This document shows, in pieces, positions 5,226 to 59,759 of a DNA stretch of 64,000 bases (position 1 is its first letter; every line of letters starts with the position of its first letter). The stretch spans positions 5,280,001 to 5,344,000 of the forward strand of contig CBDCTK010000002.1 of assembly GCA_965222225.1 (NCBI GenBank). The letters are read 5' to 3'. The notes beneath the pieces are model-generated. The model was given only the letters and a program-made list of their open reading frames with translations, did no database searches and was not told the origin of the DNA. Position numbers and translations under genes: made by a program. The stretch is from Candidatus Poribacteria bacterium. Its GTDB lineage: Bacteria > Poribacteria > WGA-4E > JAJDTR01.

Positions 5226-5305
5226 AAGCGAGCGGATAGATCAACTGAGTGAATAGCGAAGGCGATAGAAGATCCGGATAAAAATCCCAGTGCGATAGAA
5301 ATTCC
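5226..5305 (+). repeat. Hypervariable GATCAA...ATCC cassette cluster (nested)
   Basis: Full copy at 5239-5275 inside an interrupted outer copy, plus an extra 3' remnant. Confidence 0.85.
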
Positions 5306-5626
5306 CTTGTCCCGCCGACTTTGCGCGGCGATAAGGCTTCTTACTCCGATCTATACAAGTGTCTTTACTTGACTCAAGCAATCAATGCATTATCGTTTTG
5401 GAGAAGCGGTATAACATACCGGAATAGCACGTTATGTGCGTTGTTTTCGATGGCATGAATAAAGACTGAGACACAGGTAAGCATTATTTGAAACTAAGTT
5501 TTGCGACAATACCGCTGCAAGGTGTGTGAACCCGCATTGCAGCGGTATTTCATTATATCCCTCACCACCTCGTATGATAATTGAATTGTGATTCACCGCA
5601 TCCGATTGAGACACTTGGAGAAGAAG

Positions 5627-6562
5627 ATGGAAACACACCGTTTTGAGCCGACCGTTTACTACACTGCTCTTGGCACATACGAACCCGTTCTCCGCATCGA
5701 AAGTGGTGATACCGTCGTAACCACGACCGTCGACAATAGCGGCCGTGATGCGGAAGATCAGGCAGTCACGCGAGGGGGAAATCCTCAGACGGGCCCATTT
5801 TATATTGAAGGCGCCGCGTACGGTGACACACTCGTTGTTCACTTCGATCGAGTCGTCCCCAACCGAAGAATTGGACGCACCGCAACCGTTATTGCGCCTA
5901 ATGTCCTGGATCCCTACTACGTCGCTGCCAACCTGCCAAAGAGCGGTGGCGCCGAATGGGAAATTGACGTAGATAAGTGGACGGCGACACTCATCTCCCC
6001 AAAGACAAGATTGGGTGAGTTTTGCCTTCCCCTTGAACCCATGGTGGGGTGTTTCGGTGTGGCAGCCCAAGACTGCCAAGCCATTTCAACCGCAACATCC
6101 GCGGAGCATGGAGGAAATATGGATTATCGTGGATTCTGCCAAGGCGCGACCGTATACCTCCCCGTGTTCGCCGAAGGGGCGCTTTTCTTTCTCGGCGACG
6201 GCCACGCTGTTCAGGGGGATGGCGAGATTGTTGGCACTGGTATTGAAGTCTCATTCGATGTCCAATTCACGGTCAATCTAATCAAAGGCAAGCACATTCA
6301 CTGGCCTCGAGGGGAGAATGAAGACTATATCTTTACCGCCGGGAACGCTCGTCCGCTAGATCAAGCCGTTCAACACGCAACCACCGAGATGGTTCGTTGG
6401 CTGATTGAACTCGGTCTGGAAGCCAACGAGCCGCATATCTTGCTCGGTCAATGTGTGGAATACGACGTGGGAAATGTGTTCGACCCTGCCTACACAATGA
6501 TTTGCAAGGTCAAGAAAAGCATCTTGCAAGATATTGGCCTCAACATTCAACCAGTGTTGTGA
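5627..6562 (+). CDS. Acetamidase/formamidase family protein
   Basis: NPQTGPFYIEGA, HGGNMD, GDGHAVQGDGEIVGTGIE; GGAG RBS before ATG 5627. Confidence 0.92.
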   Translation: METHRFEPTVYYTALGTYEPVLRIESGDTVVTTTVDNSGRDAEDQAVTRGGNPQTGPFYIEGAAYGDTLVVHFDRVVPNRRIGRTATVIAPNVLDPYYVAANLPKSGGAEWEIDVDKWTATLISPKTRLGEFCLPLEPMVGCFGVAAQDCQAISTATSAEHGGNMDYRGFCQGATVYLPVFAEGALFFLGDGHAVQGDGEIVGTGIEVSFDVQFTVNLIKGKHIHWPRGENEDYIFTAGNARPLDQAVQHATTEMVRWLIELGLEANEPHILLGQCVEYDVGNVFDPAYTMICKVKKSILQDIGLNIQPVL

Positions 6563-6610
6563 GAACCATTCACCGCGAGATCGAGTTAGTCGTCAGCACT
6601 CTAGTAGGGC

Positions 6611-6938
6611 GCGATAGAGATCCCCTGCACACCAGCCTTTGCCAAAACGACAGGAATACACTTCGTGACCCTCAAGTTAACTCAAGTTGCTACCTATTCC
6701 GGTAGGTTGGCCTTCCAGCCCGACCCACGATCAAACGAGCGAGTAGCGAGTAGCGAGTAGCGAGTGCGATAGAGATCTTCACAGGTTGTATGGCATAAGA
6801 AACCGCTAGATTTTGTACATTTGTAGGGTGGGCGCCGCCCAGCATTTCTTGTAGCGTGCGCACGACGATTAAATGAGCGAATAGCGAACAGGATTTCCTA
6901 TCGCCCTCCCTATCCGGTCGGTTGATCGATAGAAATCC
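6611..6938 (+). repeat. Intergenic mosaic of GTAG-REPs and hypervariable cassettes, including one inverted nested copy
   Basis: 3' fragment 6611-6623; copy 6729-6778; REP 6815-6841; outer copy 6867-6938 interrupted by a minus-strand copy 6891-6927. Confidence 0.85.
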
Positions 6939-7041
6939 CACCTGCCTTTGCCTTTCATTGTCTTAGTGGTTGATTGAAGGGATTCGGCATGCATTCGCAG
7001 TGGATTCTTGGGCGCAATGTGCACCAGATTTGGAGGTGAAT

Positions 7042-8466
7042 ATGATCGAACGTTGGGAAACTTATGAACTCACACTGGATGGACCACAGGGGGGTAATCC
7101 GTTCGTTGATGTTGAATTGACGGCGGAATTTAGACTCAATAACCGAGTTTTCAAGCCACACGGGTTTTACGACGGCGATGGGCTTTACAAAGTTCGATTC
7201 ATGCCAGATGAAGTTGGCGAATGGACTTACGCCACCACAAGTAACCGAGCCGAACTCAATGGAAAGACGGGGAGATTTACGTGCATTGGGCCATCCGAGG
7301 GAAATCACGGGCCTGTGAACGTCCATAACGATTTCTACTTTCGGTATGCCGACGGGACGCCGTATCATCAGTTTGGGACGACGTGCTACGCATGGACTCA
7401 TCAAGGCGACGCGATGGAGGAGCAGACACTCCAAACCCTCGCCGATGCACCGTTCAACAAACTGCGGATGTGCATCTTTCCGAAGGATTACGCCTACAAC
7501 GATAATGAGCCGGTTTATTATCCGTACGAGGGACAGCCGCTCACGGATTGGGATTTCACGCAATTCAACCCCGAGTTCTGGCGGCATTTTGAAGAGCGCG
7601 TCCGTGACCTTTTGCGCCTCGGTATCGAAGCAGATCTTATCCTGTTTCACACCTATGACCGGTGGAATTTCGAGAACATGGCCGCAAATAGCGATGATCG
7701 CTATATTCGTTACGCCGTCGCTCGGTTAGCGGCGTTCCGAAATGTGTGGTGGTCGTTGGCGAATGAATATGACATCATGCCTGCGAAAAAGGAATCTGAC
7801 TGGGACCGGTTTTTCCAGATTATCCGCGACCATGACCCCTATCAACGACTGCGTGGGATTCACAACTGTCGCCGCTGGTATGACCACAGCAAGCCGTGGG
7901 TGACGCACACGAGTCTTCAAACCGCCAATATGGCGCACGGTATCCGCTATCGCCGCCAATACAGGAAGCCGGTTATCTACGATGAGTGCCGCTACGAAGG
8001 AGATATTCCGCAGGGGTGGGGAAATATCTCCGCAAAGCAGATGGTACAGCACTTCTGGGCAGGCACTGTTTCCGGTTGCTATGTCGGTCATGGCGAGACT
8101 TACAAACATCCCGAAGATTTCCTATGGTGGGCAAAAGGTGGCGTGCTGCGCGGCGAAAGTCCCAAGCGAATTGCGTTCCTCAAATCGTTCATGGCGGAAG
8201 CTCCGGCGTTTGACGCGCTCGAACCGATTGGCGACGACAGTGGGCGATATGTTCTCGCCAAGCCGGGCGAATACTACCTCGTCTACGTAACCCAACCACA
8301 AACCCTTACGCTCGATCTGTCGGGGACTCGCCCATACAGAATTGATGGCGTGGACACATGGAACATGAAAGTCGAGCCGATCGGGACGGCACAGCCGGGG
8401 GAGTATAATCTTACTGCCTCTCACAGTGATTTTGCGTACCGCTTTACACCCTATGCGCCGGGTTAG
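7042..8466 (+). CDS. DUF5060 + DUF4038 (apiosidase-like) putative glycoside hydrolase
   Basis: GNPFVDVEL, GFYDGDGLYKVRFMPD, FGTTCYAW, WSLANEYD, DECRYEG; GGAGG RBS. Confidence 0.88.
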   Translation: MIERWETYELTLDGPQGGNPFVDVELTAEFRLNNRVFKPHGFYDGDGLYKVRFMPDEVGEWTYATTSNRAELNGKTGRFTCIGPSEGNHGPVNVHNDFYFRYADGTPYHQFGTTCYAWTHQGDAMEEQTLQTLADAPFNKLRMCIFPKDYAYNDNEPVYYPYEGQPLTDWDFTQFNPEFWRHFEERVRDLLRLGIEADLILFHTYDRWNFENMAANSDDRYIRYAVARLAAFRNVWWSLANEYDIMPAKKESDWDRFFQIIRDHDPYQRLRGIHNCRRWYDHSKPWVTHTSLQTANMAHGIRYRRQYRKPVIYDECRYEGDIPQGWGNISAKQMVQHFWAGTVSGCYVGHGETYKHPEDFLWWAKGGVLRGESPKRIAFLKSFMAEAPAFDALEPIGDDSGRYVLAKPGEYYLVYVTQPQTLTLDLSGTRPYRIDGVDTWNMKVEPIGTAQPGEYNLTASHSDFAYRFTPYAPG

Positions 8467-8766
8467 AGAGCCTGACCAAGCGGGGTCGACCAGCGAGCGT
8501 GCGTTCGTTGCTGTTTCACGCAAGAGGGGAAAACTGCGATTTAATGATTCGCAGATTGGCGTGGATAGACAGATCCACGCCATAACCGTACATATGCAGC
8601 GGATTTGGCAATCCACTGCGAGCGGTGATTGATTTAACTCACATTCTCCCGGTTTGCAACGTTCCGTATAAGCGGCAACTTGGGTTAACATTCAATCCAT
8701 AATATGTGTAAATGACTATAGATGCAATCCCTCAACTGCGTAAGCCCTAAAGGAATAAGACACCAC

Positions 8767-9585: not shown

Positions 9586-9676
9586 TTTCTGCTATCGGGC
9601 ACATCTTGAACAATTCTCCGCCTTCAGTTATCTGAGGAGTTTATCTACAAAATATTTAGCATAGGGAGACGAAATT

Positions 9677-12879: not shown

Positions 12880-15800
12880 ATGGACATCATCCAGGAACTC
12901 AATGAGAAACAGGGACAGGCGGTAACCGATAAAGACGGCGCAATTTTGGTTGTGGCAGGTCCGGGCACGGGCAAAACAATGGTTATCACCCACAGAATCG
13001 CCCACCTCATCCACCACCACGGCGTGCCGCCGGAGCAAATCCTCGCTGTCACCTTTACCAATAAAGCCGCGCAAGAAATGCTCGACCGAATCAAGGATTT
13101 ACTCGGCACAACCCAGGGATTAGACGTTAAGATTCATACCTTCCACGCCTTCTGCGTTGGCTTGCTGCGAGAACACGCGCAGGAAATCGGGTTAAACAAG
13201 AACTTTACGATTTTCGATCAGGAGACACAGAATGAAGTCCTGATTGAATGCCTGCGAGAGTTGAAACTGAACCGACTCGACTACCCGCCCTGGCAGTTGC
13301 GCGACATCATCGGGGGGTATAAGGTGAAGTTGGAAAATCCGCTCGCTGCAGACGGTGAAATGCCCGAGATTCGTACAAGAGATGGCGACGTGATTGACGA
13401 CCCGTCCGCCATCCAAAATATCGTCGACCTAATCAAAGCATATCGGAGCAAACTCGCCGCCCATTCCGCCCTCGACTTTGATGATCTGCTCTCCAAGACT
13501 GTCGAAGTGCTTCAGAAAACACCCACCGTCCGTGCAAAATACCATCGCGACATCCGCTATATCCTAGTCGATGAATATCAGGACATCAATGCCGTCCAGT
13601 ATGAACTTCTGAAATTATTGTGCCGCGTACCCGAGCGTAATTTGATGGTAGTCGCCGATGAAAATCAGTCGATTTATAGTTGGCGTGGCTCCATGCCGGA
13701 ATACATAGAGAAATTCAAGACCGATTTCCAACCAACCGTCGTGGCATTGGAAGAGCACTATCGTTGTACCGAGAAAATTCTGCGGGCGGCACAGACGGTG
13801 ATTTCCAAGAATACCCGCCAGGAAAGGAGTACCCTGAAGACACATCGGGGCGCGGGGCACTCCCTTTTCCACTATACATTGGGTGATCCAAACGAAGAGG
13901 CGTCGCACATTGCCAGGCTCATCCGCCAACTCGTAAATGAACGGCACTACTCTTATGGAGATATCGCCATCTTTTACCGGACGCATCAGCTCGCGGAGGC
14001 GCTGGCGGATCGGTTATATTACGAGGGGATTCAGTTTCAGCGTGTCGGACGAGAAAACTCGTTCCAAGAGACACACGCACAAGATATTTCGTCCTATCTA
14101 AGTTTTATCCAGTGGCGCCTCCCGCGCGATCTTGAACGGGCGCTCAATTTTCCGCAACAGTTGATTGACGATCTTACGCTCGCGCGGCTCAAATGGTTGG
14201 CGCAGCGTGATAAACTGACGCTGGTTGAACTGCTCGAAAAGATTGAAAACTATCCGGAAGATGTTGGCCCCTTGACACGCCGGAACATCCGCCAGTTCCT
14301 CGGAGAAATTGATGCCTTTGCCGAAGAAATCAGAGGCGAAAAAATTGCCAAAGTTGTGTCGAAACTGTTTAATCTGCTTGAAAGCCGTCGCTCGTCCTAT
14401 CGCGATGAAGAGATTCGACAAATTGAAGAGTGGGACGAAATCCCATATCTCAGGGTGGCTGCGGACGCTTTGTACAGCGCGATACAGCGCGGTGAGTCGG
14501 TGCGAATCACGGCTACCAATGAGATTGATTCCTGCTGTGCCGCACACATCGTTCATCAGACAATGGAGCACTATCTTGACTGCGACGTTTGTATAGAATT
14601 TTTGCCCTTGGAGGACGAAATACCCGAAATCGACAACGATAGCATAAATGTAATGATTGGTCGGTTTTCGGCTTTGCCCGAGGCAACTGGAACAGTAATT
14701 CTCATCGCATCCGAGCCAGAGTACAGCGCGAATGTGATTCAGTTAGGACGAAACGAAGAGCCGGATAAAAATCCGGAAATTGCCAAGAGTGTCATCGCGC
14801 TGAAACTATGTCAGCGAGTGGTTGGCTACTTTGAAACCCCGAATTTCGCCGACATGATTGTCTACGACCTCGAAACCACCGACTACAATCACAGGCGGGC
14901 GGAGATTGTCGAAATCGCCGCCAAGCGGCTCAGCATTATCGGGAGTGAACTCGAACGATACCATCAATTGGTCAAACCCTCGCGCGCTATTCCCGCGTCG
15001 AGCACCCGCGTTCACGGTATCGACAACGAAACGGTCAAAAATGAACCGAGTATCGAAGCGGTGCTTCCAAGCTTTCTCAGTTTTATCCAAGACCGCATTC
15101 TCATCGGTCATAATGTAATTGAGTTTGACAATATGGTCTTGGAACGCGAACTCAGGCGATTGGATATCGGCTTATCAAACCCTTGCTACGATACCCTCGT
15201 CACCGCTCAACGGCTTTATCCGCGCGAGTCCTGTAAACTTGAGGCGCTTTCTGAAAAATTCGGTATTGAACACGATACCATGCACCGAGCGATTGAGGAC
15301 GTACAGGTGAACCACCGTGTGTTTGAGGAGCTAATCAAGGTTAATCTCCGCCATCGCGAGGTGCGCTCATTGACAGAGTTTTTGCCGTTTGTGGGAGTCG
15401 GGATCCTCGCAAGTCGGGCGGGGCGCTGGGAAACTGAAGGCTCTGAGAATGCCCTGAACGATGAACAACCGTCGGATGCCATAGGAGCCTTTCTTCAAGC
15501 ATCTGCACGATACGTGCAACACCATCGTCCTGAGGCGGGTAAGTTGTTGTCATCCATGGGATCTACGGAGATAGAGAAAATTGGAGAATTTTTTCAAACA
15601 CTCCGAAAAACCACGCTCCCGAATTTTCCGGAAGATGGAGATTGGGAAAATAGGCGGGCAAAATTCATGAACGGCGTTATACAATTCGAGAGGAATAGCC
15701 GTGAAAAGGAAATTTCTGGTTTCCTTGATTATCAAAAGTTAATCAATAGCGCCGACGAAACAGAGAGCGAAACCGACAAGATTACGTTGATGACCCTTCA

Positions 15801-16068
15801 TGCGGCAAAGGGAACAGAGTTTCGAGTGGTCATCGTGACAGGAATGGAAGAGGGAACGTTCCCCATTAGGCGCAAAGACCAGTCGTTGGCGGAAATTGAA
15901 GAAGAACGCCGATTGTTCTATGTCGGCATGACGCGAGCCAAGGATCGACTCTATCTCACCTCTGTTGTCCGTCGTCACGGCGATTTAGAACGCGTGCCCT
16001 CCATGTTCACTCGCGAAATTCCATCGAACCTTATCAATCGATGGTCGCCGCGCGGTTTGAGGCATTGA
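12880..16068 (+). CDS. UvrD/PcrA-family helicase with inserted degenerate RecJ-like segment and DEDDh exonuclease
   Basis: AGPGTGKT, DEYQD, LMTLHAAKGTEF, EERRLFYVGMTRA; internal VYDLETT / IGHNVIEFD / HRAIEDV. Confidence 0.92.
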   Translation: MDIIQELNEKQGQAVTDKDGAILVVAGPGTGKTMVITHRIAHLIHHHGVPPEQILAVTFTNKAAQEMLDRIKDLLGTTQGLDVKIHTFHAFCVGLLREHAQEIGLNKNFTIFDQETQNEVLIECLRELKLNRLDYPPWQLRDIIGGYKVKLENPLAADGEMPEIRTRDGDVIDDPSAIQNIVDLIKAYRSKLAAHSALDFDDLLSKTVEVLQKTPTVRAKYHRDIRYILVDEYQDINAVQYELLKLLCRVPERNLMVVADENQSIYSWRGSMPEYIEKFKTDFQPTVVALEEHYRCTEKILRAAQTVISKNTRQERSTLKTHRGAGHSLFHYTLGDPNEEASHIARLIRQLVNERHYSYGDIAIFYRTHQLAEALADRLYYEGIQFQRVGRENSFQETHAQDISSYLSFIQWRLPRDLERALNFPQQLIDDLTLARLKWLAQRDKLTLVELLEKIENYPEDVGPLTRRNIRQFLGEIDAFAEEIRGEKIAKVVSKLFNLLESRRSSYRDEEIRQIEEWDEIPYLRVAADALYSAIQRGESVRITATNEIDSCCAAHIVHQTMEHYLDCDVCIEFLPLEDEIPEIDNDSINVMIGRFSALPEATGTVILIASEPEYSANVIQLGRNEEPDKNPEIAKSVIALKLCQRVVGYFETPNFADMIVYDLETTDYNHRRAEIVEIAAKRLSIIGSELERYHQLVKPSRAIPASSTRVHGIDNETVKNEPSIEAVLPSFLSFIQDRILIGHNVIEFDNMVLERELRRLDIGLSNPCYDTLVTAQRLYPRESCKLEALSEKFGIEHDTMHRAIEDVQVNHRVFEELIKVNLRHREVRSLTEFLPFVGVGILASRAGRWETEGSENALNDEQPSDAIGAFLQASARYVQHHRPEAGKLLSSMGSTEIEKIGEFFQTLRKTTLPNFPEDGDWENRRAKFMNGVIQFERNSREKEISGFLDYQKLINSADETESETDKITLMTLHAAKGTEFRVVIVTGMEEGTFPIRRKDQSLAEIEEERRLFYVGMTRAKDRLYLTSVVRRHGDLERVPSMFTREIPSNLINRWSPRGLRH

Positions 16069-16127
16069 TTTACATCCAAACTGTCCTTGAGAGTATTCGC
16101 ACATAGGTATGTTATATTTCGCCACCT

Positions 16128-16200
16128 GTAGGAGCGATCTCCCGATCGCGACCTCCTGTTACGACAAAATTCAGGAATCGCGAGCAAAACTCGCTCCTAC
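16128..16200 (+). repeat. Inverted REP pair, GTAGGAGCGATCTCCCGATCGCGAC family
   Basis: GTAGGAGCGA...TCGCTCCTAC; related copies at 23663, 29464, 29650, 31044 and 59340. Confidence 0.85.
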
Positions 16201-17073: not shown

Positions 17074-17106
17074 AAGACCATAGGATAGGTTGTCGAGATA
17101 CTGCAC

Positions 17107-17182
17107 GATCAAGCGAGCGAATAGCGAGTGCGATAGAGATCCTAAGGCGATAGTAAATCCCTTAGTGAGGGCGATAGAAATC
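17107..17182 (+). repeat. Hypervariable cassette (consensus-like copy 17107-17142) plus two 3' remnants
   Basis: GATCAAGCGAGCGAATAGCGAGTGCGATAGAGATCC, then AAGGCGATAGTAAATCC and TAGTGAGGGCGATAGAAATC. Confidence 0.88.
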
Positions 17183-17234
17183 ACCTCATTGCGCGTCTCG
17201 AATCGGCTGTAACATTTGGATTTTTGAAATCGTA

Positions 17235-21942: not shown

Positions 21943-22025
21943 GGTCAAGCGACTGAATAAGGAGTGCGATAGTAGATCCTGATAGAGATCCCAGTGCGAT
22001 AGCTAATCCAGCGCGATGAGTTCCC
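21943..22025 (+). repeat. Hypervariable cassette plus stacked 3' remnants
   Basis: GGTCAAGCGACTGAATAAGGAGTGCGATAGTAGATCC t GATAGAGATCC c AGTGCGATAGCTAATCC. Confidence 0.85.
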
Positions 22026-23490: not shown

Positions 23491-23635
23491 GATCAAGCGA
23501 GCGATTAAGTGAGTGGACAATGAACGATCAAACGACTGAAAAAGGAGTGCGATAGTAGACCCTGATAGAGATCCTTTATGGAGTACGATAGTAAATCCCA
23601 CAAAGGACATGAATAGTGACTGCGATGGAGATTCC
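23491..23635 (+). repeat. Four-level nested cassette cluster
   Basis: Three GAT(C/T)AA starts and four ATCC-type ends that parse as nested insertions. Confidence 0.85.
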
Positions 23636-23929
23636 ATAGAAACACCGTTAGGCATGTCTTCTGTAGGGGCGATCTCGCAATCGCGACCTTCCCCGCTCCA
23701 GCGGAAATCAGGGGATTGTCAATCGCACCTTGAGATACTAGCGCGACGGCCTCATCACAGTGTTCTGAGAATCACGATGAGGTCTTCGTGTCTTGCACTC
23801 CCGGAGGAGTGCTATGTTAGTAGAAAGTAGGCCTTCCCTTCTCGCGCTCCAGCGGAGCGGCATGTATATCCTTCGATTGGCGAGCACGCAGGTTCGGTGT
23901 AATTGCTCCAACGATTCTCGGCTATGGGG

Positions 23930-23993
23930 GATCAATCGAGCGGTAAGTGACCGATCAACTGAGCGAACAGCGAAGGCGATAGAGATCCTATTC
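23930..23993 (+). repeat. Nested cassette pair
   Basis: Outer GATCAATCGAGCGGTAAGTGACC followed by a full copy at 23953-23988. Confidence 0.85.
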
Positions 23994-35453: not shown

Positions 35454-35634
35454 GTGCGAATACCTCAGAAAAACTCCTTACTGACTACGCAATTCAGATT
35501 GTAGGGAATAAAGATCGTTTCAGCAAATCATCATTTTTGCTTTTTGCGTAAATCCTGTTCATGTGTTTTTGCAGAATCGCACCAAAAATCATCTTGGATA
35601 TAACCTCACACTTGGAACCTTATTCGCTATAAGG

Positions 35635-35808
35635 GTACATTTGTAGGGTGGGCACTGCCCACCCTTTCTCGTAGAGACCCCGTAGTGACCGATCAGCTGA
35701 GATCAACCGAACGATCAACTGAGTGGATAACGAAGGCGATAGTAAATCCTACAGTGGGGGATCAAGTGAGTGGACAACGAACGCGATAGCTAATCCCGAT
35801 AGAGATCC
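35635..35808 (+). repeat. GTAG-REP followed by a doubly nested cassette cluster
   Basis: REP GTACATTTGTAGGGTGGGCACTGCCCAC; cassettes at 35691, 35701, 35713-35749 and 35760-35796. Confidence 0.87.
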
Positions 35809-36001
35809 TTCTCCTGATTGCGAATTTTTGTGGTATCGGCAATCATCAAATCGCCGATTTACTCTTTTAGCAGGGAATCTTCAAGGAGTGGCAACACAAA
35901 AAAACATGGGGCAGACTTCCCTTACACGCACCGAAATTGCTATGCCATATATTTTCAAGCATACCCCTTTTTTCATTAACGGCAAAAATCGCCATCGCCA
36001 C

Positions 36002-39485: not shown

Positions 39486-42400
39486 TCACGCTTCCGACTC
39501 CGGGGTTTCGGCTGCTGCTTCATCGTGAGGGCTGCTAGACGAAGTCGCGTCTTCGGCAACTTGTTCTTGCGCCTCCGTGTCTACCTTGGAAGTCTCTTCT
39601 TCTGGAGATGGTACAACCTCAAAGGTTATCTCGTTTTCCACATGTTTGCATTTAACGAAAACGATATCTTTCTCCTGCCGATAAAGCCAGCCGGATTCAG
39701 CCGCTTCCAAATCTTCTACGCAGGGCAGATCCTGACCGAGGGCTCTCACCGCGCTTGGAATACTACCATACCCCGTGATGATAGTGTGGCTTGTTTCATT
39801 GTGTACATAACACAGTTTGAAATCCAACTTTCCGTTGCTGCCCTTGTCGCTGGTTTCTATCTGGGCTCCGCTGCTTAAGTGGATACGCCCGTTCTCATGA
39901 CGTATGATTGACGTGGAGATGTCCGGATCCTGCCCACGCAAAGTGTATAGGTTTGCCATAATGCTACCAGGGTTGATATGCGGTGGGCGTCCCTCTGTAC
40001 AGAATTCATGAAGACTGTCTGGGTATGTTCCTCTGAATTCGCCCTCCGTCCATTGCTGGTGCATACCGCTATGCGTAATGCCTTCGGCAATACCCGTCCA
40101 ATCACATCGCTGGCTATGGCGTGCAAGATGCTGCAAATGGTACGCGAAAACAAGACCACTCCGTTGTGATGCAACCCCAAACCACGCGCGAGTATCGAAG
40201 GTTGTTCCGAATATGGGAACGGAGGCGAAACGCATGGCGGGACGATCCGGCAGATTCCAGTGATAAATGAAAGCCAGCCCGGCTTTTGCCCAATATTCTG
40301 CACATGCAATATGGCGCTTATCATCGGTTATCGTGTAGGCTTCAACATACGCGCCGACAGCATTGGCTGCGGCAAGGAGATTCGGAGTCTTCGGCGGACA
40401 ATCCGACGCTTGAGCGCCGCGCGGAATTTTAAACCGGTCCATGCCCTTTAGCGCCTTTAATCCGGCGTTCAATGAGTTCTCATTCCCCGAGATTCTGGCG
40501 TGCTTTAATAGGATGAAGGCGCAATGCGCACAAATTCCTAGAACTGTGTCGTTGTCTCCTCCGAGTTCTTTCGCGCTTTCAGTTATGGGGCGGTAACGCC
40601 AACGTCCATCATCCTCCTGCGTCTCAATTAAATTCTGGGTTGTTTCTTTAAGGCGTTCTAAGCCCGCTTCGATGTTGCCGAAGTAAAACGGTAGTTCCCA
40701 GTTTAAGCTTTGGCGCTTCACTGCAGCGATCGGCCCTCCTGCCCTCGATTCGCGAACCGTGTTTCCCGCGATGGCAAGGGCGTGTTGCTTCACATCATCG
40801 TTTCGCGTTGCAAGATAGTCGTACCATAGCAGCGTTGCAATCCCTGGGAGGTTCGCTGCCGCCGAATCAACAGTTTGCTGAGGTTCACCGGTATTTTCAT
40901 TCCTCGCCTCCCGCATAATCCCGTCTCGTGAGAGCGCAAGCTGCTCCTCGTGATTCCGCAGAGATTCAAGTGGTTCAGGCGCGCCGTACGTATCGGTCCA
41001 ATGCGAGACAGCATCGGAAATAGAGGCGTTGCCGTCAATAATAATGTGTGCACTAATCGTAAGTTGTCGGTTTGCCTCCAACGTGTACGGCGTAGATGCC
41101 TCTAAGCAATTTTCCTCAACCCAGTCACCCGGTGCCGGAAGAAACAACCCCATCAGATGATTCTGATGCTTTTCATGCCAATTCGGCGAGGCAAAAACAG
41201 CGGATAGCATCGTGTGTTCGCCATCCCAAGTTTCCAATGGGTCCCATGCCAAACCAACCAGCGTTTTCTTGTACTCAACCGCCATCAGAGGAACGGTAAT
41301 CTTATAGGGATGTGGAACGAGACGGTTATTATATGGCGGTGCCGCATCTCGCGTATTTGAGGAAGGTTCATCTGTTCCTAAGAACTCCAGTCCGGGAAAA
41401 AGGGCTGCACTTTTGCCCTCCCCGTAACTACGATCGCCTGCGTGAAGCATCGGGCCATTAAAAGCGAGAATCTCCCGCCGAGCGCTGGTTGAAAGGCAGT
41501 ATTCCGTGCGCACGCGTTTGTCATCCTCGGTCAACGAAAAACGGGCCTCAAAACACCAATTCACACCGTCGGCATCCTGTTGTTCGCCAGCGAGGATAAC
41601 AGTTGACTCCCCAAAGCTATTTCCCGCGAGACGATAGATTGTGGGTATAATACGGAGTTGTTCGGTTTCGTTCTTTGAATTTCGATACCGAATCGTTGTC
41701 ATCGCATGACTTGTGGCAACTTGACGATAGCTCCCGTGTTTGGCGGCAAAAAGCGTGAAATACTCAAACCCGCGTGTACCTTGAACGAAAAGAAGTCGCA
41801 CGTGCTTGTTCCCAATCACTACATGTTCTTGGAGGTTGTATGTGTGTAATTCCGGAACTATCTGAGAAGGGACCTTCGGTGACGCCGGCTGAATTTCAAT
41901 AAAGGTTTCAAGCGTTTGCCGTACCTCGCCCATTGGCGTTTTGTACTTCAGCAAGATGGAAATCTGAGTTGCGGACTCGCGTGAAAATCTGCGGAGATTC
42001 CATACTAATTTGGTTTCGTCGCCGGCATCTAGCGTCTTAATCGGATAGACATGCCGCCCGCGGCGTAGCTTCACCTGGTTAATTGCCACACTCGTTTGAT
42101 TTGCGGGGGAGAGAGCAACCGTTCCCGTGTTACGGAGTGTGCACTGCACCTCAAAATCTTCACTCACGGTAACAATTGCCGTGTTGAGTCCTAAACTTGA
42201 TACCTCTAATTTGGGCAATTCTGTATACAGTGCCACACTGAACTCTTGGGAAGAGAGTTCGGTTGAAAACCCTCTCCTTTGAGTCTCGACAACCATGCGT
42301 TGACCGATTTCGTCGGCAATCTTGGATACAGGTGTTGGTGATTCGTAAGCAAACTCCATGGCGGATATTTTGCCGTTTGGTCCATCGGTTGATTCGTGGA

Positions 42401-43808
42401 CATGAATGCCATCCTCTCCAATCTGCTTCATATCATTGAAACTTCCGATGATGATTCCCTTTATGGCAGTTGGCTCTGTCTTGCTCTTTTCAACGGCGGA
42501 CGATGTACGGGTAAGCTTGAGGATCCGCGGATTGCCCCACAGTGCCGAATTGTTCCCGTCATCTCGACTTTCATCACACGCGGCTAGGAAGGTAACCTGA
42601 ATCTCTCTGCCGGCATGTTTCGAGACATCCATTGCGTGTTCGTTCCATTTGGGTTCGGTGGCAATTCCCTCAAAATGCCGCTCACCCGAGATTTCAATCG
42701 CGAATCGAACACCGCGTGATTTTGTCGATGGGTCGTCAGAATCAATTCCGTCCCGTAGTCCGGTACTAAAATGCAAAATTAGCGTATCTCCGGACTCTAC
42801 TTGAGGCAACGAAAGCTGATATTCGATTCGCGCAACATCCTCCTCTCGCGGCTGCTGAACTATTGCGGGCTTTGCCACGCCGCCTGCGCTATGTTGGCTA
42901 TGCGCTAAAGCCTGATCAGCGCCTTGGGCTGGACTGCTACTAGAAGCATCCGCAAAGTTGTAGATTTCGTCAATGATGCCGAATCCAAGCGGAGTTTCAA
43001 TACTGTCGGAAAAGGTCTTCTGTTCCATAGCTACGGGCTCCGACTGATCGGTTGCTGTCACCCCTGTTTCCACAGGCGATTCCGCCGCCATTGGAATGTT
43101 CGTTTCTGAAGTTTGGCTATCTATCTCTGGAACCTGGTCCGGTTGCGCGTCGGTGACATGTGAAGATGCCGCCTCATCGGCCTCAAATGACTCCGGTGCA
43201 ACGGGATTGGTCGTTTCTGACGCTTGACTGGGTATTTCGGGGGCGTCACTATCTGTTGCTACATCAGCCGGCGGCGTCTCATCGTGGTCCACCACTGCTT
43301 CATCGGTGTTTGTTGCAATATCGTCCGGAGCGTCGGCTGCCTCGTTTGCCAACTCACCGGTGATATCCGTCTCGAATTCGCTTGAAGGTAGAACGTCTTC
43401 GGCCGCCGCGTCAAGACTGTCATCTGATACATCGCGCGTCTCTAATTCAACTGAGGCTATATCTGTTGCGAAGATGCCTGCCTGTCCAACCTCAGCCGTT
43501 GCGTCTGATGCTTCTAGTTCTGTCTCGCTAGTTTCGTCGGCTACAATAGGCAATGGATTAGCGACATCAAAACGTTCCGACTGTTCATTTGCTACCTCCA
43601 AAAATCCCTCCGGTGCTTCAGCAGTCTCATTACCTAAATCTACTCTACCGTAATCGCCTGAAGTAGGATTGATTTCTTCCGCGTTTTCTGATTGGACCTG
43701 CGGTTGTTCCAATTGATTATCTTGTGCCGGTTCGTTAGTTGTGTTGTGTTGATCGTCCTCTGTTGGCTGCGTAACTAGCGATAACAACAGTTGAAAAACA
43801 GTAAGCAT
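39486..43808 (-). CDS. Large hypothetical protein: acidic disordered N-terminus, CBM/CARDB-like domains, putative (alpha/alpha)-barrel C-terminus
   Basis: 1440-aa ORF; E/D/T/A-rich first ~270 aa; ALWGNPRI; LRNTGT; TQEDDGRW; GTYPDS. Confidence 0.75.
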   Translation of the reverse strand: MLTVFQLLLSLVTQPTEDDQHNTTNEPAQDNQLEQPQVQSENAEEINPTSGDYGRVDLGNETAEAPEGFLEVANEQSERFDVANPLPIVADETSETELEASDATAEVGQAGIFATDIASVELETRDVSDDSLDAAAEDVLPSSEFETDITGELANEAADAPDDIATNTDEAVVDHDETPPADVATDSDAPEIPSQASETTNPVAPESFEADEAASSHVTDAQPDQVPEIDSQTSETNIPMAAESPVETGVTATDQSEPVAMEQKTFSDSIETPLGFGIIDEIYNFADASSSSPAQGADQALAHSQHSAGGVAKPAIVQQPREEDVARIEYQLSLPQVESGDTLILHFSTGLRDGIDSDDPSTKSRGVRFAIEISGERHFEGIATEPKWNEHAMDVSKHAGREIQVTFLAACDESRDDGNNSALWGNPRILKLTRTSSAVEKSKTEPTAIKGIIIGSFNDMKQIGEDGIHVHESTDGPNGKISAMEFAYESPTPVSKIADEIGQRMVVETQRRGFSTELSSQEFSVALYTELPKLEVSSLGLNTAIVTVSEDFEVQCTLRNTGTVALSPANQTSVAINQVKLRRGRHVYPIKTLDAGDETKLVWNLRRFSRESATQISILLKYKTPMGEVRQTLETFIEIQPASPKVPSQIVPELHTYNLQEHVVIGNKHVRLLFVQGTRGFEYFTLFAAKHGSYRQVATSHAMTTIRYRNSKNETEQLRIIPTIYRLAGNSFGESTVILAGEQQDADGVNWCFEARFSLTEDDKRVRTEYCLSTSARREILAFNGPMLHAGDRSYGEGKSAALFPGLEFLGTDEPSSNTRDAAPPYNNRLVPHPYKITVPLMAVEYKKTLVGLAWDPLETWDGEHTMLSAVFASPNWHEKHQNHLMGLFLPAPGDWVEENCLEASTPYTLEANRQLTISAHIIIDGNASISDAVSHWTDTYGAPEPLESLRNHEEQLALSRDGIMREARNENTGEPQQTVDSAAANLPGIATLLWYDYLATRNDDVKQHALAIAGNTVRESRAGGPIAAVKRQSLNWELPFYFGNIEAGLERLKETTQNLIETQEDDGRWRYRPITESAKELGGDNDTVLGICAHCAFILLKHARISGNENSLNAGLKALKGMDRFKIPRGAQASDCPPKTPNLLAAANAVGAYVEAYTITDDKRHIACAEYWAKAGLAFIYHWNLPDRPAMRFASVPIFGTTFDTRAWFGVASQRSGLVFAYHLQHLARHSQRCDWTGIAEGITHSGMHQQWTEGEFRGTYPDSLHEFCTEGRPPHINPGSIMANLYTLRGQDPDISTSIIRHENGRIHLSSGAQIETSDKGSNGKLDFKLCYVHNETSHTIITGYGSIPSAVRALGQDLPCVEDLEAAESGWLYRQEKDIVFVKCKHVENEITFEVVPSPEEETSKVDTEAQEQVAEDATSSSSPHDEAAAETPESEA

Positions 43809-52303: not shown

Positions 52304-52539
52304 TTCTTTCTCCTTAGTTTTTTGCGGTAATGATGGAAAGAGAAACTGTCCTCTGCAAATCTCAAAATTGGATTGTGCAAGCCTGCCGATAAAAGATTGA
52401 AGGTGACCAATGTAGTCGGATTTACGTATAAAATTTTAGACCAATTTGATTATATTTAGATCGGCTATAGTATAATACAATTTAGAGTAGCAAATCAAAC
52501 TTTATTTGGTCTGCAGGACAATCGCCCCAGACCCTAGAA

Positions 52540-52604
52540 GATTAACCGACCGGATAGCGAATGCGACAATACTTCCATAGAGATCTCAGTGCGATAGCAA
52601 CCCC
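52540..52604 (+). repeat. Hypervariable cassette plus 3' remnants
   Basis: GATTAACCGACCGGATAGCGAATGCGACAATACTTCC ATAGAGATCT cAGTGCGATAGCAACCC. Confidence 0.8.
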
Positions 52605-52916
52605 GATGACCAAGCCGTCGATTGTCCCTAATTATCTTGTCATTCAATCGTTGCTCCTTTCTTCAACTAAGTCAGTGGAAATCAAGAAAGGTAATCCTAC
52701 AAAATTTACGCACCGACCTACGTCAAGAAAAGATGAACTTCGCATGGGGGAGGCAGATGTATTGAAAACACGAAAGTCACAGCAATGGGCAGGACAAGGT
52801 TTAAGGTTTGATGGCGTGCAAACCATCAGCAACTGTTCAGAATTGGTTCGCGCACATTGTTTTATTCTTGAATAACCGCTGACATCCTATCGACAAATAA
52901 ATCGTCGTAACCCTAA

Positions 52917-53196
52917 GAGCCTGTTTGAAAAGTACATTTGTAGGGTGCGCACTGCGCACCAACCTCTAAAAGCCCCAGAGTGGGATCAAGGGAGCGAATA
53001 GCGACTGCGATAGAGATCCATGAAGGTGTATAGAAACGCCAAAACCCCGTGCACCTAAGCCCCAGCGGGGATCAAACGAACGGATAGTGAGTGCGATAGC
53101 AATCCCATAGGTACGTAGCAGGCAACAATTAAGACATGGAAGAACTTCCCACAAATGACCAAAAATGGCTTTCCTATCGATTATTCAAACAGGTTC
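52917..53196. mobile_element. 280-bp MITE (13-bp TIR, TAA duplication) carrying REPs and two cassettes
   Basis: TAA|GAGCCTGTTTGAA...TTCAAACAGGTTC|TAA; cassettes at 52984-53019 and 53070-53105. Confidence 0.85.
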
Positions 53197-53248
53197 TAAA
53201 CGAAGACCGGGGGAATGGATGCAGAGAATTGCAACTCGCCTCAATTCC

Positions 53249-56059: not shown

Positions 56060-56890
56060 TTAGCGGCTAACCCGCTTACGTCTTCCCGCAACATGCGATG
56101 CTGGGACGCCTACCTCCTCCACAGGACTGGAAGACCTCCGTGCAGTTCCATAAATAATCCAACTACCAACGATTGCCAATGCAATACTAATTAGTTGTGC
56201 TGTCGTCAACCCGGCGATGACACGCTCACTCGCCCGCCAGAACTCGGCAATGAAACGTTCAACTCCCGCCGCTACAAGTCCCGCGCCCACCAGCCACCCG
56301 GCTATCCCCTCTTTCTTTTTACGGATTGACCATAGTAGTGCAAAACCGACGAGCGACAATCCAAATTCATACAGGGGCGTTGGGTGAACGGGCACGTTTA
56401 TGGGAACCGTGCCTCTTGGAAATGGCATTGCCCAAGGCAAATCCGATGGCGGACCATAGTCACCATCCCCAGAGAGGAAACATCCGATTCGTCCAATGCC
56501 ATATCCGAGTAAAAGTAGAGGAGCAAGAGCGTCAAGCGTTGGCAAGAGAGGGTCGGAAGATCGATGTATGACCCAGATCGCGGCTGCAAACCCTCCAATT
56601 AGACCACCATACCACACAAGCCCGCTGTTTGAGAACAATTCTCTTAATGAAAGGCTGCCATCTTGCAGGGATGAATAAAGTTTTGCGCCAATGATACCGC
56701 CTAAAGCGCCCCATAAAATAATAGATGAGGCAAGCCTAGGCTCAAGTCCTTTTCGTTTGAACTCGCGTTGCCCCATATACATACAAGTAAGGAAGGCAAG
56801 CGCCATCATCAACCCATAACTGTGTACCGCTATAGGTAGGTGGATCGGGCCAAGGTGTAGGGTTGGTAACTCAAATATGGTTGGATACAT
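56060..56890 (-). CDS. lgt: Prolipoprotein diacylglyceryl transferase
   Basis: MYP, SYG, YGGLIGG, GRIGC, HPTPLYE, RFIAEFWR. Confidence 0.93.
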   Translation of the reverse strand: MYPTIFELPTLHLGPIHLPIAVHSYGLMMALAFLTCMYMGQREFKRKGLEPRLASSIILWGALGGIIGAKLYSSLQDGSLSLRELFSNSGLVWYGGLIGGFAAAIWVIHRSSDPLLPTLDALAPLLLLGYGIGRIGCFLSGDGDYGPPSDLPWAMPFPRGTVPINVPVHPTPLYEFGLSLVGFALLWSIRKKKEGIAGWLVGAGLVAAGVERFIAEFWRASERVIAGLTTAQLISIALAIVGSWIIYGTARRSSSPVEEVGVPASHVAGRRKRVSR

Positions 56891-57240
56891 GATTCATCAC
56901 GAAAAAGAGAGATGGTTGTCTCATTCACCCGCAGCAACATCTTTTAAAGGTAGGCAAAACATCCAAAGCACAACCGAAACTGTGTGCTAAAATCCTAATA
57001 TCCACCCAAACCGCTACTGCGCCATTAGAATATTCGACCCCCTAAAAAATGTCAAGCAGAATCTCGCTCCTAATTCGTCTGTTTTTTTTGAAAAAGGCTT
57101 TGCAAACTTTTCTGAAATGTGCTATACTTGGCGCATCCAACTTCCGAGAGACGCTAGGAGCGTTATACCGCAAGGGTTTTCCTCTGTTTTGTAGTATTCT
57201 CTGCAACGTGCCTCAGGTATTGGAAAGGGTAGCAGCATTT

Positions 57241-58113
57241 ATGACTCGACGGGAACTCTGGTTGGCGCTTGCATCGGTTGAAGGCATCGGCCCGATTCGA
57301 ATTAATCGGCTCTTGGCTCGCTTTGGAAGCGTGGAAAAAGTTTTTGATGCCGAATGCTCGGAAATCGCTTGTCTTCCGCTTTTCAATCCGGTTTTAGCGT
57401 CGCGTGTTTTGGAAACTCGAGAGCGCCTCGGTAAATTTCGACGCCAAATGGAGTGGCTCAAGAGTCAAGGCGTTGAGGTTTTGTGCTTGGAAGATGCAAA
57501 TTACCCTGATAAGTTGAGGGTCATTTCCAACGCTCCGCCAATTCTTTATAAAAAAGGTAAATTGACGGGAGTCAGTCGGAAGGCTATAGCAATCGTTGGT
57601 TCGACTCAGCCGACACAGATGGGCATTCTGACAACCTTGGAGTTGTCGAAGTCTCTCGCTCAGGCAGGTTTCACGGTTGTTAGTGGCTTTGCCAAGGGGA
57701 TTGACACTTCTGCCCATTTTGGCGCGCTTTCGGTGGGTGGAAAGACCGTGGGGGTGTTTGGTGGGGATCTTTTTTCGATATACCCCACAGAAAATCGACC
57801 GCTTGCAGCGCAAGTTTGTAAAAGTGGCATGCTCCTGTCTGAACATCCGTTTGATAAGCGGCCCACACCCGCAAATCTAATTCTACGTAACCGAATTATC
57901 AGTGGGCTGTCAATTGCGACAATTGTAGTTGAAGCCAGAGAAAACGGCGGCGCGGTGCGCACGGCAGGCTATGCCCTCGAACAAGGACGTGCGGTTTTCG
58001 CTTACGACTGGCAAAAAAGTCATCGCTTGAGCGAGGGCCCTCGCCATCTTCTTCAACGAGGGGCAATACCAATCACTCTTGGACGGCTGAGGATATTCAG
58101 AATCGTCTATTAA
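57241..58113 (+). CDS. dprA: DNA-processing protein DprA (possible frameshift near the 3' end)
   Basis: GIGP, YP..L......PP.LY.KG, VVSGFAKGID, RNRIISGLS, VVEA. Confidence 0.9.
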   Translation: MTRRELWLALASVEGIGPIRINRLLARFGSVEKVFDAECSEIACLPLFNPVLASRVLETRERLGKFRRQMEWLKSQGVEVLCLEDANYPDKLRVISNAPPILYKKGKLTGVSRKAIAIVGSTQPTQMGILTTLELSKSLAQAGFTVVSGFAKGIDTSAHFGALSVGGKTVGVFGGDLFSIYPTENRPLAAQVCKSGMLLSEHPFDKRPTPANLILRNRIISGLSIATIVVEARENGGAVRTAGYALEQGRAVFAYDWQKSHRLSEGPRHLLQRGAIPITLGRLRIFRIVY

Positions 58114-58508
58114 ATCCGGAACTGTTCACGGAGCAACCGAGGAATAGTTCTCTAGTTGAGCAAATGGAACTGTTTTAGGAGGTGTTTTTGAAGACTTAAG
58201 AACTTCGGTAGGCAAAAAATTTGGAAAAATGTGCAGGTTTTTCTTTACAACAATCGGAAATTCTGGTAGACTATAATCTACCTTGCACGAATTAAGTCAA
58301 AAACATGCGGATGCTTGGTTGATTGAAAGCATTACAACACTTGGCATGTTCTTGAGGTTTGACATTGGCGCTGCTGCTAACGGGATTGAAAATCTATTGA
58401 ATACTTCACCCTTCGGGCACATATGCCGATTTTGATTGCGAGGACTGATTTAGGCTGTCTAGCTAAACCTAGATGTTTTTATACGCAAATTAAAAAGGAG
58501 TAGAAATA

Positions 58509-59147
58509 ATGCACAAGCTCTTTCGAACCTTAGCTTTGGTAATGACTGCGATGTTGGTTTCCTACGTAGTTGGATGCGGTGGTGGTGAGACGGAACCGGA
58601 TGGTCCTGCGTCGGCTACGACCGTTACGGCTGATCCACCGAGTGGATCTACGGTTCCGTCAAATGCCGTAATCAAGCTTACCCTCGATCAGGCGGTTGAT
58701 GCTGTTGCAGGCGCAACGGGCTCAGGGAAAAACTGGGAGGTTGCGGCGGCCGGTAACTTGAGCGTGACTTGGACCAACAAGGATGGATCTGCTGGAGGAC
58801 CTGAGACCTTCACCTACACGCTTCAAGCTCCGGATAATGATGCGCCGAAGATTACCGGCGGCACGGTAACCAATGGAGCTAAAGATGTTGATCCCGGACC
58901 TATAAATGCGGATAAGATTCAAATCACGTTCGATGAGGATGTTACCGGTACAGCCGAATTGAACTTTGAGGACAATACATCTGCTGGTTGGCAAGGGGCG
59001 GTTACGGGCATGAATGCCGAACTTACCCCTGTTGCAGGGAAGGAACTCGCCAACTCGGTGACCTATGTAGTCGTGCTCAACGTTAGCGATAAGGCAGGGA
59101 ATAAGGCTGCGTTCATGGTCGAGTTTACTACCAAGGCAAAAGAATAG
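58509..59147 (+). CDS. Lipoprotein with Ig-like (Big_5-type) domains
   Basis: Lipobox VVGC; D..APK, ITFDEDV, VSDKAGN....FTT; AAGGAG RBS. Confidence 0.85.
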   Translation: MHKLFRTLALVMTAMLVSYVVGCGGGETEPDGPASATTVTADPPSGSTVPSNAVIKLTLDQAVDAVAGATGSGKNWEVAAAGNLSVTWTNKDGSAGGPETFTYTLQAPDNDAPKITGGTVTNGAKDVDPGPINADKIQITFDEDVTGTAELNFEDNTSAGWQGAVTGMNAELTPVAGKELANSVTYVVVLNVSDKAGNKAAFMVEFTTKAKE

Positions 59148-59184
59148 GTGTTTTAGCCACCCGGTTCGTTGAAATGCTGTTTTC

Positions 59185-59219
59185 AAGGCAACACGTTATA
59201 GAACGTGTTGCCTTTTTTT
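59185..59219 (+). terminator. Rho-independent terminator
   Basis: AAGGCAACACGTT-ATAG-AACGTGTTGCCTT followed by a T run. Confidence 0.9.
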
Positions 59220-59255
59220 GTTCCATTTTCAAGAGAAAGCTGCACATTCTGAGGC

Positions 59256-59474
59256 TATAGTCATGTCCATTCATGTGTACCCATATTAATGAGAGAAATT
59301 AGCGACTTGATTGTTGAAGATTGTTACGACAAACTTACTGTAGGAGCGATCTCCCGATCGCGACCGCCTGTCGCTAGGAAAGCTCGCTCCTACAGAAGAC
59401 GCGCAATAAATTGCACTACGATGAATCAAACTGCATAAATCCTATATGTGTAATTCTCAGTTGTAATGACTATA
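59256..59474. mobile_element. MITE-like element with an internal inverted REP pair
   Basis: TATAGTCAT...ATGACTATA ends; REP pair at 59340-59393; a similar right end occurs at ~8703-8720. Confidence 0.55.
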
Positions 59475-59679
59475 ATTGTAGGGGACGGCCCCCCCCATGG
59501 TTGTAAAGGACAACCATGACTGTGCCGAGGCGGCGGCGTGCAATCTTCTCGGAGACCGATTGGGAGGTATCTGTTGCGAGAGGATGAACTCAGGGAAGGA
59601 TTCCGGCTAAGGGAGGAAATCGGCGATTTGATGATCGCGCAGATTCCACACAGAAACAGGGGTGATTTTATCCGCTAGT

Positions 59680-59759
59680 GATTAACTGAGCGAATAGATC
59701 AAACGACTGAACAAGGAGTGTGATAGAGATTCCGAGGCGATAGCAATCCCATAGATATC
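59680..59759 (+). repeat. Nested cassette pair
   Basis: Outer GATTAACTGAGCGAATA | inner copy 59697-59733 | GAGGCGATAGCAATCC. Confidence 0.87.

Follow-up and report, generated by a model that had tools for sequence, protein, structure and literature searches.

Integron attC sites are folded single strands that are read by structure, their stems covarying while a few unpaired bases stay fixed; they measure 57-141 nucleotides (nt) and are found in cassette arrays beside an integrase gene, not dispersed. The small dispersed repeats (SDRs) of Nostocaceae, the subject of Elhai et al. 2008, reportedly nest in other repeats and have hairpin potential. For the insertion sequence IS608, the active strand is reportedly biased to the lagging-strand template. 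According to the account in Quentin et al. 2018 (PMC6006769), repetitive extragenic palindromes (REPs) are intergenic hairpins of 21-65 nt, thought to be handled as single-stranded DNA (ssDNA) by a Y1 HUH enzyme that reads shape and a fixed tag; the rules given there are GTAG or GTGG placed 0-2 nt 5' of a hairpin, a stem of 7-20 paired nt, a loop of 2-5 nt and an association with tnpA-REP. In the same account, IS200/IS605 ends are imperfect ssDNA hairpins with fixed adjacent nucleotides, recognised by TnpA, and the elements have no terminal inverted repeats (TIRs), no target duplication and an orientation linked to replication. Rickettsia palindromic elements (RPEs), as outlined in PMC3733652, are small palindromic repeats that can sit in frame in open reading frames (ORFs). 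The present analysis concerns a repeat unit of about 36 nt, labelled B, which recurs in a 64,000-nt stretch of a Candidatus Poribacteria genome (assembly GCA_965222225.1, contig CBDCTK010000002.1, positions 5,280,001 to 5,344,000), called the window throughout. Four of its variable slots are covarying base pairs of a small hairpin, and that B forms this hairpin and is mobile is held with high confidence.

The window corresponds to G000:C2:5280001-5344000, where G000 is a genome of 5.70 Mb and 50% G+C in two contigs. An earlier reading of the window, made from its letters alone (the sequence-only reading), had described a dispersed intergenic cassette with a fixed scaffold and hypervariable slots. 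The motif is real and much more frequent than chance would give: GCGATAG was counted 25 times where 7.24 (sd 2.49) are expected, and 0 of 100 shuffles reach 25. The regular expression proposed with that reading has 10 matches in the window, 9 on the + strand and 1 on the - strand. A covariance model, R1, was built from alignment A1, in which 8 window copies stand beside 135 copies taken from other Poribacteria records (143 in all). Run without filters, it matched the window 16 times at E<=1; 12 of these matches, 11 on + and 1 on -, reach E<=1e-4. The 12 strong matches bear out 12 of the 13 uninterrupted copies originally listed, but the copy at 52540 is degenerate (E 0.43) and the one at 6729 carries a heptamer expansion. 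The coordinates of all copies are presented in Table 1.

In the whole of G000, the regular expression matches 489 places, and the looser pattern NNGANN-5nt-NNGANN-GCGATAG finds 865 copies. A logo of 833 genome copies confirms that variation is concentrated in the named slots and not spread evenly, with invariant flanks and with information that reaches background level about 9 nt before GATCAA and about 7 nt past GCGATAG. Two further statements of the sequence-only reading hold in the window but not in the genome: no two window copies are identical and all sit between long ORFs, but genome-wide there are 524 distinct sequences among 669 36-mers (the commonest occurring 24 times), and 58 of 831 copies lie inside crude ORFs, a few of them in frame mid-ORF. 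No Rfam covariance model matched the window at its gathering score, and in 5200-7000 none did so even at E<=1; no tRNA or tmRNA was found in the window. Identity with an RNA family was rejected on these two results.

The slot layout is GATCAA-[ab]-GA-[cd]-GRATA-[d'c']-GA-[b'a']-GCGATAG, with slots 1 and 4 complementary to each other, and likewise slots 2 and 3. The six-step stem is built of two base pairs (Watson-Crick or G.T), a G.A/A.G tandem and a second set of two base pairs, and a GRATA pentaloop closes it. Among the 865 copies, all four pairs form in 715, three in 107, two in 29, one in 13 and none in 1. Three to four pair types occur in large numbers at each stem position (CG 236, GT 209, AT 189 and GC 178 at pair 1), and the loop-closing pair is always pyrimidine-purine. 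In A1, whose copies come mostly from other genomes, the helix is 96% paired, as opposed to 27-44% in a control where the partner is slid by 1-3 columns, and double changes are present at all four pairs (92, 51, 56 and 52 sequences), values reached by 0 of 500 shuffles. Given that G.T is common (209 copies at pair 1 and 112 at pair 4) and A.C rare among the 865 copies, and that GA/GA becomes TC/TC on the other strand, the strand that folds, and does so as a single strand, is that of the motif. Since the hairpin is weak by energy while its slots pair, it was first seen as "no strong hairpin" and "hypervariable slots"; the former remains true of the computed energy, but not of the pairing itself.

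With RNA parameters, 5 of 8 copies give the expected hairpin, extended by an ATC/GAT helix to three helices in all. This third helix is nearly invariant, with wobble variants only, and is neither supported nor refuted. An outer helix GGGATC/GATCCC is paired in 68% of cells with almost no covariation and is not claimed. One window copy contains a heptamer array, (AGCGAGT)x4.7 at 6738-6769, which looks like slippage; it lies at a place where G.T pairing makes direct repeats of the two stem halves.

The 865 copies comprise 211 stem quadruplets, the commonest occurring 57 times. Only 67 of the 108 combinations of common pair types occur, leaving 41 empty versus 4.7 expected under independence; hence the stems are lineages and not free combinations, and free combinatorial diversification was rejected. 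The space of allowed stems is small, and 116 of the 135 copies from other genomes have a stem quadruplet also present in G000. Most stem classes have many different left flanks, nearly all of them distinct; in a 31-copy class, at most 2 copies share any left flank among the six commonest shown.

The intergenic regions of the window are mosaics of repeats, in which B is frequently nested. REP-1, GTAGGGTG[C/G]GCACTGC[G/C]CACC, is a GTAG-tagged hairpin with 227 seeds in the genome; REP-2, GCCCCnnnGGGGCGACAGGTGTATAG, is an untagged GCCCC..GGGG hairpin; and REP-3, TGTAGGAGCGATCTC..GGTCGCGA, has 106 seeds. GCGATAG lies within 70 nt of 93 of the 366 GTAGGGTG seeds, and within REP-1 the position of B is either in the loop, after GGTG[C/G]G, or after CACTGCG. 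When 667 copies were divided by context, 190 were found directly after half of another B, 54 occupied REP-2-like sites, 42 lay in REP-1 loops, 39 came straight after GTAG, 19 were in the REP-1 3' arm and 11 followed GA..GC, so that at least 355 adjoin another repeat, while 312 are in none of the recognised contexts. Most insertion junctions fall immediately 3' of a G, in the form (A/T)G(C/G)G^ATCAA. In 17 cases B sits in the loop of another B, the outer halves pairing 4/4 across the insert in 13, and this accounts for the interrupted and partial copies. The inner copy belongs to the CTGAG[T/C]..[A/G]CGAAG class in 15 of these 17 cases, versus a background of about 16%, and the outer copy has an AC/GT inner stem in 16 of 17, versus about 11%. 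One GTAG hairpin stands just upstream of the nested window array that begins at 35701.

Neighbouring copies are mostly direct and 35-99 nt apart with irregular spacing; of the neighbour pairs less than 600 nt apart, 212 are direct and 66 inverted, the latter with no fixed spacing. The unit has no TIRs in either the logo or the alignment. A 5'-truncation bias, the signature of a retro-type process, was rejected, 5' and 3' signatures being similar (1261 versus 1080).

B differs between related sites, both within the genome and between species. The composite of about 290 nt at 52911-53204, which resembles a miniature inverted-repeat transposable element (MITE), has inverted ends, one REP-1 and two REP-2 hairpins each broken by B. 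A paralogue at about 1210-1345 is B-less, with no duplication in the filled counterpart, and 53 copies of the composite's 3' half include 5 in which the REP-2 site is empty (GGGGCGACAGGT), the rest being occupied by B copies of varying stem or by two to three B nested in each other. A duplication of GATC, ATC or GCG at the target site was rejected, the empty sites lacking these. A plasmid collection gave no match to the composite.

Within the genus, B content differs between species in all three orthologous intergenic regions compared. In region 52304-53248, the degenerate B at 52540 and the composite are present only in G000 among this and 8 other same-genus genomes. In region 17074-17234, six spacers from five other genomes are about 45 nt long and B-less, while G000 and three other genomes each have a different B-containing insert; the insert of about 140 nt that holds the 17107 copy has no counterpart in 5 of 9 other same-genus genomes. 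In region 35454-36001, repeat content is different in all five other genomes examined. At the 3' flank of a Y1 transposase gene of the REP-associated tyrosine transposase (RAYT) kind, the REP-2 hairpin is empty in G002 and holds a B of about 35 nt in G005, G001 and G000. Taken with the dispersal of the copies, these comparisons support the sequence-only reading in describing a dispersed and probably mobile family.

Of the 831 copies, 773 are outside crude ORFs. Three paralogous ORFs carry B in frame, reading ..RSSEGTASAIEIP.. (Table 1), and many other same-genus paralogues of these ORFs match only downstream of B. Other mid-ORF cases occur in ORFs of 2419, 769, 639 and 531 aa. Relative to flanking genes, as given by crude gene calls, both are co-oriented with the motif in 270 cases, both anti-oriented in 247, convergent in 98 and divergent in 154, and the density computed from class lengths is about 0.62-0.67 copies per kb in every intergenic class. 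Given the lack of orientation preference and the equal density, a transcript-level role was rejected. The motif strand lies on the strand of negative local GC skew in 564 of 831 copies (68%), a bias which persists at 67% when copies preceded by GG or GC, the most frequent left contexts of REP type, are set aside and 315 remain. For the commonest REP, the GTAG strand is on the negative-skew strand in 73%, and control hexamers give 48-55%. Along the 5.6-Mb contig C2 the skew is patchy, with many sign changes and no two arms, which suggests many inversions or an unusual replication layout.

Across 185,579 species genomes, a scan gave at least 101 stretches, and all matches listed are metagenome-assembled genomes of Candidatus Poribacteria. 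A survey of 176 Poribacteria genomes with a strict pattern, whose reversed control gave 0 everywhere, found 280-761 matches in 10 of 10 genomes of the window's genus, 111-126 in 4 of 4 genomes of one genus of another family, and 1-13 in five further genomes, on few contigs that are mostly short where lengths are listed. The strict pattern had 0 matches in the remaining 157 of the 176 genomes, sister genera included. The low-copy contigs, among them C72, C83, C91 and C116 of G057, C362 and C61 of G146, and C38 and C42 of G010, may be binning errors from a B-rich relative. In the window's genus GCGATAG is followed by a 2-3 nt spacer and ATCC, and the A1 rows of the second genus have TCTT.. in place of the ATCC tail; hence the conserved core is GATCAA-hairpin-GCGATAG.

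We consider it probable that B is a structure-defined, non-autonomous mini-element, mobilised in trans, nested in other repeats and moved as ssDNA, and that it constitutes a small dispersed repeat of two Poribacteria genera. Under this proposal, B would be cut and pasted as single-stranded DNA, usually entering immediately 3' of a G that lies within or beside a hairpin of another repeat. A trans-acting enzyme would recognise the shape of the hairpin together with the fixed flanks, and not the sequence of the stem. Copies that lose their pairing would cease to multiply, which would produce both the covarying slots and roughly 60 stem sub-families. The most likely enzyme class would be a Y1 HUH transposase, of which the genome encodes several, none in the window. 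A Y1 enzyme of the RAYT/IS200-like kind is thus a plausible candidate, and its assignment to B is put forward tentatively.

Five matches to PF01797 (Y1_Tnp) exist in G000, at 2.56-3.73 Mb, and none in the window (5.28-5.34 Mb), which is in line with the earlier statement that the acting enzyme is not encoded there. The best of them, L005, is a 157-aa ORF that scores 65.8 bits with the NCBIfam IS200 model, above its cut-off, and 30.6 bits with REP_Tyr_transpos, below the cut-off of 80, and that resembles the ISDra2 and IS608 TnpA proteins of the PDB. After its flanking hairpin comes CGACAG, or in the other genus CGATAG, a sequence that resembles the GCGATAG of B. In G000 the gene has inverted B on both sides, nested in its own GCCCC..GGGGC hairpins, and these sites are empty in other species. 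At 14 orthologous loci the flanking repeat is REP-2, with a stem that covaries between lineages. The first impression that B is the cognate flanking repeat of the L005 RAYT is therefore not supported, the orthologues being flanked by REP-2 with B nested in some species only. Similarly, a decayed Y1 fragment, L009, is bounded by inverted B, but intact homologues of it have GTAG hairpins of their own.

Y1 (RAYT-like) genes of at least four kinds, namely L005, L007, L008 and homologues of L009, coexist in one genus, each with its own hairpin repeat. L007, which has an internal TAG (G000:C2:3088937-3089269), is flanked by REP-3. The REP/RAYT repertoire of one genome is unusually rich.

Several results weigh against the proposed mechanism. 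By nearest-neighbour energy the hairpin is unstable: DNA folds of 16 strands range from -0.2 to -3.1 kcal/mol (z -1.1 to +1.8), and the RNA folds yield z between -0.13 and -1.02 only. The insertions also have blurred boundaries, with 1-2 target bases 3' of the G often changed or lost. No cognate enzyme for B was found, every Y1 gene examined being flanked by its own different repeat: three of the four Y1 types have GTAG-tagged hairpins and the L005 type has the untagged GCCCC..GGGGC, B being only nested or adjacent. Among 47 genes flanked by B on both sides, 13 of them with inverted B, only the known RAYT is transposase-like. The sequence-only reading had suggested looking for co-occurrence with RAYT/Y1 enzymes, and at least one PF01797 match is indeed present in all 14 B-rich genomes, but also in 25 of 31 genomes overall. 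The best Y1 protein does not track B: all 3 genomes of a B-free genus have it, and in the second B-rich genus 2 of the 4 genomes gave no match to it at E<=1e-5. The folding strand is mostly on the negative-skew strand, the opposite of the bias reported for IS608, and replication direction is only inferred here, since the chromosome skew is patchy. Finally, part of the B copy number comes from amplification of B-carrying composites, and 21 of 55 copies of the AGGAAT/ATGACT stem class are in the same REP loop.

In comparison with the systems described above, B resembles REPs in its hundreds of mostly intergenic copies, in its mosaic clusters with other motifs and in sharing the skew-linked strand bias of the genome's GTAG REPs. 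It differs in having no GTAG/GTGG 5' tag (the folding strand has GATCAA as its 5' flank, the other strand ..CTATCGC), in a stem of 2+2 pairs around a G.A tandem with a 5-nt loop, against the 7-20 full pairs stated for REPs in PMC6006769, in that no Y1 gene examined has B as its own flanking repeat, and in a stem sequence far more diverse than is usual in typical REP families. Paired REP doublets (REPINs) are inverted, whereas B neighbours are mostly direct. From MITEs B is distinguished by the lack of TIRs and of target-site duplication at empty/filled pairs, although the composite of about 290 nt does have inverted ends, and from clustered regularly interspaced short palindromic repeats (CRISPR) by its dispersal and irregular spacing, with no repeat-spacer array. 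The sequence-only reading was thus correct that B has no TIRs, no target duplication and no repeat-spacer layout, and that it formally fails the REP, MITE and CRISPR definitions.

B shares with IS200/IS605 ends a hairpin next to fixed bases, the lack of TIRs and of duplication, and a strand bias, yet those elements and their enzyme-less derivatives have a left end and a right end (LE and RE) and a target tetranucleotide, and B is a single hairpin of about 36 nt. Like attC sites, its stems covary while the flanking bases are fixed, but it is shorter and dispersed, attC sites being 57-141 nt and in arrays. A few copies sit in frame in long ORFs, one of them common to three paralogues, as RPEs can, but B is overwhelmingly intergenic. 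SDR4 to SDR6 of Nostocaceae are described, in part in PMC5861425, as 21-27 nt long, mobile-looking, inserted in short repeats and without a known enzyme. B is likewise nested in short repeats and without an encoded enzyme; it differs in its length of about 36 nt, its phylum and its unrelated sequence. On this comparison, B would appear to work most like a REP or an IS200/IS605 end, and to behave most like the Nostocaceae SDRs. A literature search, in which supplements were not covered, found no paper on Poribacteria intergenic repeats.

The amplification of B-carrying composites noted above is what carries the strongest rival, in which B is a passive passenger that arose a few times and spreads by amplification of carrier REPs or of the composite and by local slippage or duplication. 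Two window copies lie in the composite, which has 152 related BLAST segments in G000; besides the class sharing one REP loop, another stem class has 8 of 22 copies in the same composite site; and the direct, closely spaced neighbours and the heptamer expansion inside one copy fit local duplication. Yet in 5 of 53 copies that composite site has no B, and in others it is occupied by B of differing stems; most stem classes have nearly all-different left flanks, 312 of 667 copies are in no recognised repeat context, and a B of about 35 nt alone distinguishes orthologous RAYT flanks. We therefore regard this explanation as unlikely.

Distinctly unlikely is a host-function motif, that is, a protein-binding RNA or DNA hairpin kept by host selection for transcript stability, termination or nucleoid organisation, as proposed for REPs. 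The strong covariation, the G.U-type pairs and the tandem G.A would suit it, as would the like folding of 5 of 8 copies with RNA parameters, the invariant flanks and a core conserved across two genera. However, there is no orientation preference and density is equal in all intergenic classes, content turns over at 3 of 3 orthologous regions, sister genera gave no match to the motif, B copies nest inside each other, and no Rfam match was obtained. It is improbable, in turn, that an enzyme not yet recognised, or a Y1 used anew, reads the tandem-G.A mini-hairpin with the stem serving as an address that chooses targets, as the skewed inner and outer stem classes of the 17 nested cases would suggest; if true, B would be a programmable, hairpin-guided ssDNA insertion system that parasitises other repeats.

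The model of the sequence-only reading, in which each copy is made from a master template by error-prone synthesis of the reverse-transcriptase or primase-polymerase type with five slots randomised, was prompted by high slot diversity on a fixed scaffold, for which the 211 quadruplets among 865 copies would speak. It is disfavoured by the slot variation itself, which is compensatory (all four pairs in 715 of 865 copies, and no shuffle reaching the observed double changes) and lineage-structured, with stems common to several genomes. The co-occurrence with reverse transcriptases that had been suggested is not borne out either: RVT_1 at E<=1e-5 is found in 6 of the 14 B-rich genomes and has no match in 8. 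With RVT_1 in only those 6 genomes and with changes that form compensatory pairs, B also differs from diversity-generating retroelements, and no template/variable-region pair or adenine-specific pattern was seen. We judge the model highly improbable. An assembly or library artefact is next to negligible, given that B is carried in unique flanks by independent assemblies of different methods and isolates (long-read chromosomes, SPAdes contigs and MEGAHIT contigs) and that most genomes of the phylum gave no match to it; nothing that would speak for an artefact was found.

Poribacteria are uncultivated sponge symbionts, and B, at hundreds of sites per genome, drives rapid turnover of their intergenic DNA between species. 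Given the many matches at contig ends, it also breaks short-read assemblies. B is a clear natural case of a repeat family held together by structure and not by sequence, and its copies are a ready-made mutational scan of what the enzyme needs. Were that enzyme identified, the system would show how a hairpin with no more than four Watson-Crick pairs and a G.A tandem can suffice for ssDNA transposition, and how one mini-element can live inside others.

Table 1. Copies of repeat unit B and associated repeats; positions are those of the window unless a G000 contig is named.
Feature	Position	Strand	Evidence
R1 matches at E<=1e-4 (52-nt frames)	5230, 6727, 6885(-), 17098, 21934, 23517, 23944, 35704, 35756, 52975, 53061, 59688		R1
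B-less composite paralogue, both GCCCC..GGGGCG sites empty	1210..1345	+	
Full B copy, GATCAA-CTGAGT-GAATA-GCGAAG-GCGATAG-AAGATCC	5239..5275	+	regex; R1 53.8 bits, E 9e-9
B copy with AGCGAGT x4.7 heptamer expansion in stem-loop region	6729..6778	+	TRF; R1 32.9 bits, E 9.5e-5
Full B copy, sole strong one on - strand	6891..6927	-	regex; R1 52.5 bits
Full B copy	17107..17142	+	R1 62.1 bits
Two 3' fragments GCGATAG-NNN-ATC, after the 17107 copy	17147-17184	+	
B copy, GGTCAA variant, with GATAG..ATCC fragments after it as far as 22009	21943..21979	+	R1 44.6 bits
5' halves of further B units, before the 23526 copy	23491-23525	+	
B copy	23526..23561	+	R1 50.6 bits
Degenerate B copy, after the 23526 copy and the fragments that follow it	23601-23641	+	R1 22.3 bits
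Degenerate B unit without GCGATAG, before the 23953 copy	23931-23952	+	
B copy	23953..23988	+	R1 56.3 bits
Nested/concatenated B array: 5' half 35701-35712, full B 35713-35749, full B 35760-35796	35701..35796	+	R1 57.0, 43.4 bits
Degenerate B copy and GCGATAG fragment	52540..52603	+	R1 14 bits, E 0.43
MITE-like composite of about 290 nt, ends CCTGTTTGAA / TTCAAACAGG	52911..53204	+	BLAST, R1
B copies inside the composite	52984-53019, 53070-53105	+	R1 60.5, 61.7 bits
B copy, GTGATAG replacing GCGATAG	59697..59733	+	R1 43.8 bits
GCGATAGCAATCC fragment, after the 59697 copy	59737-59749	+	
REP-1 type hairpin, GTAGGGTG[C/G]GCnnnGC[G/C]CACC	6823-6843, 35643-35663, 52940-52960		
REP-3, TGTAGG[A/G]GCGATCTC..TCGCGAC	16127-16169, 23662-23704, 59339-59381		
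Paralogous ORFs with in-frame B	G000:C2:3738163-3738306, 2910518-2910657, 3939945-3940087		

Two other features of the window were observed. A 1440-aa ORF at 39486-43808 (-) has no Pfam match at E<=0.001, and the UvrD-type helicase encoded at 12880-16068 (+) carries, within its C-terminal domain, an inserted RNase_T exonuclease domain (residues 660-815).

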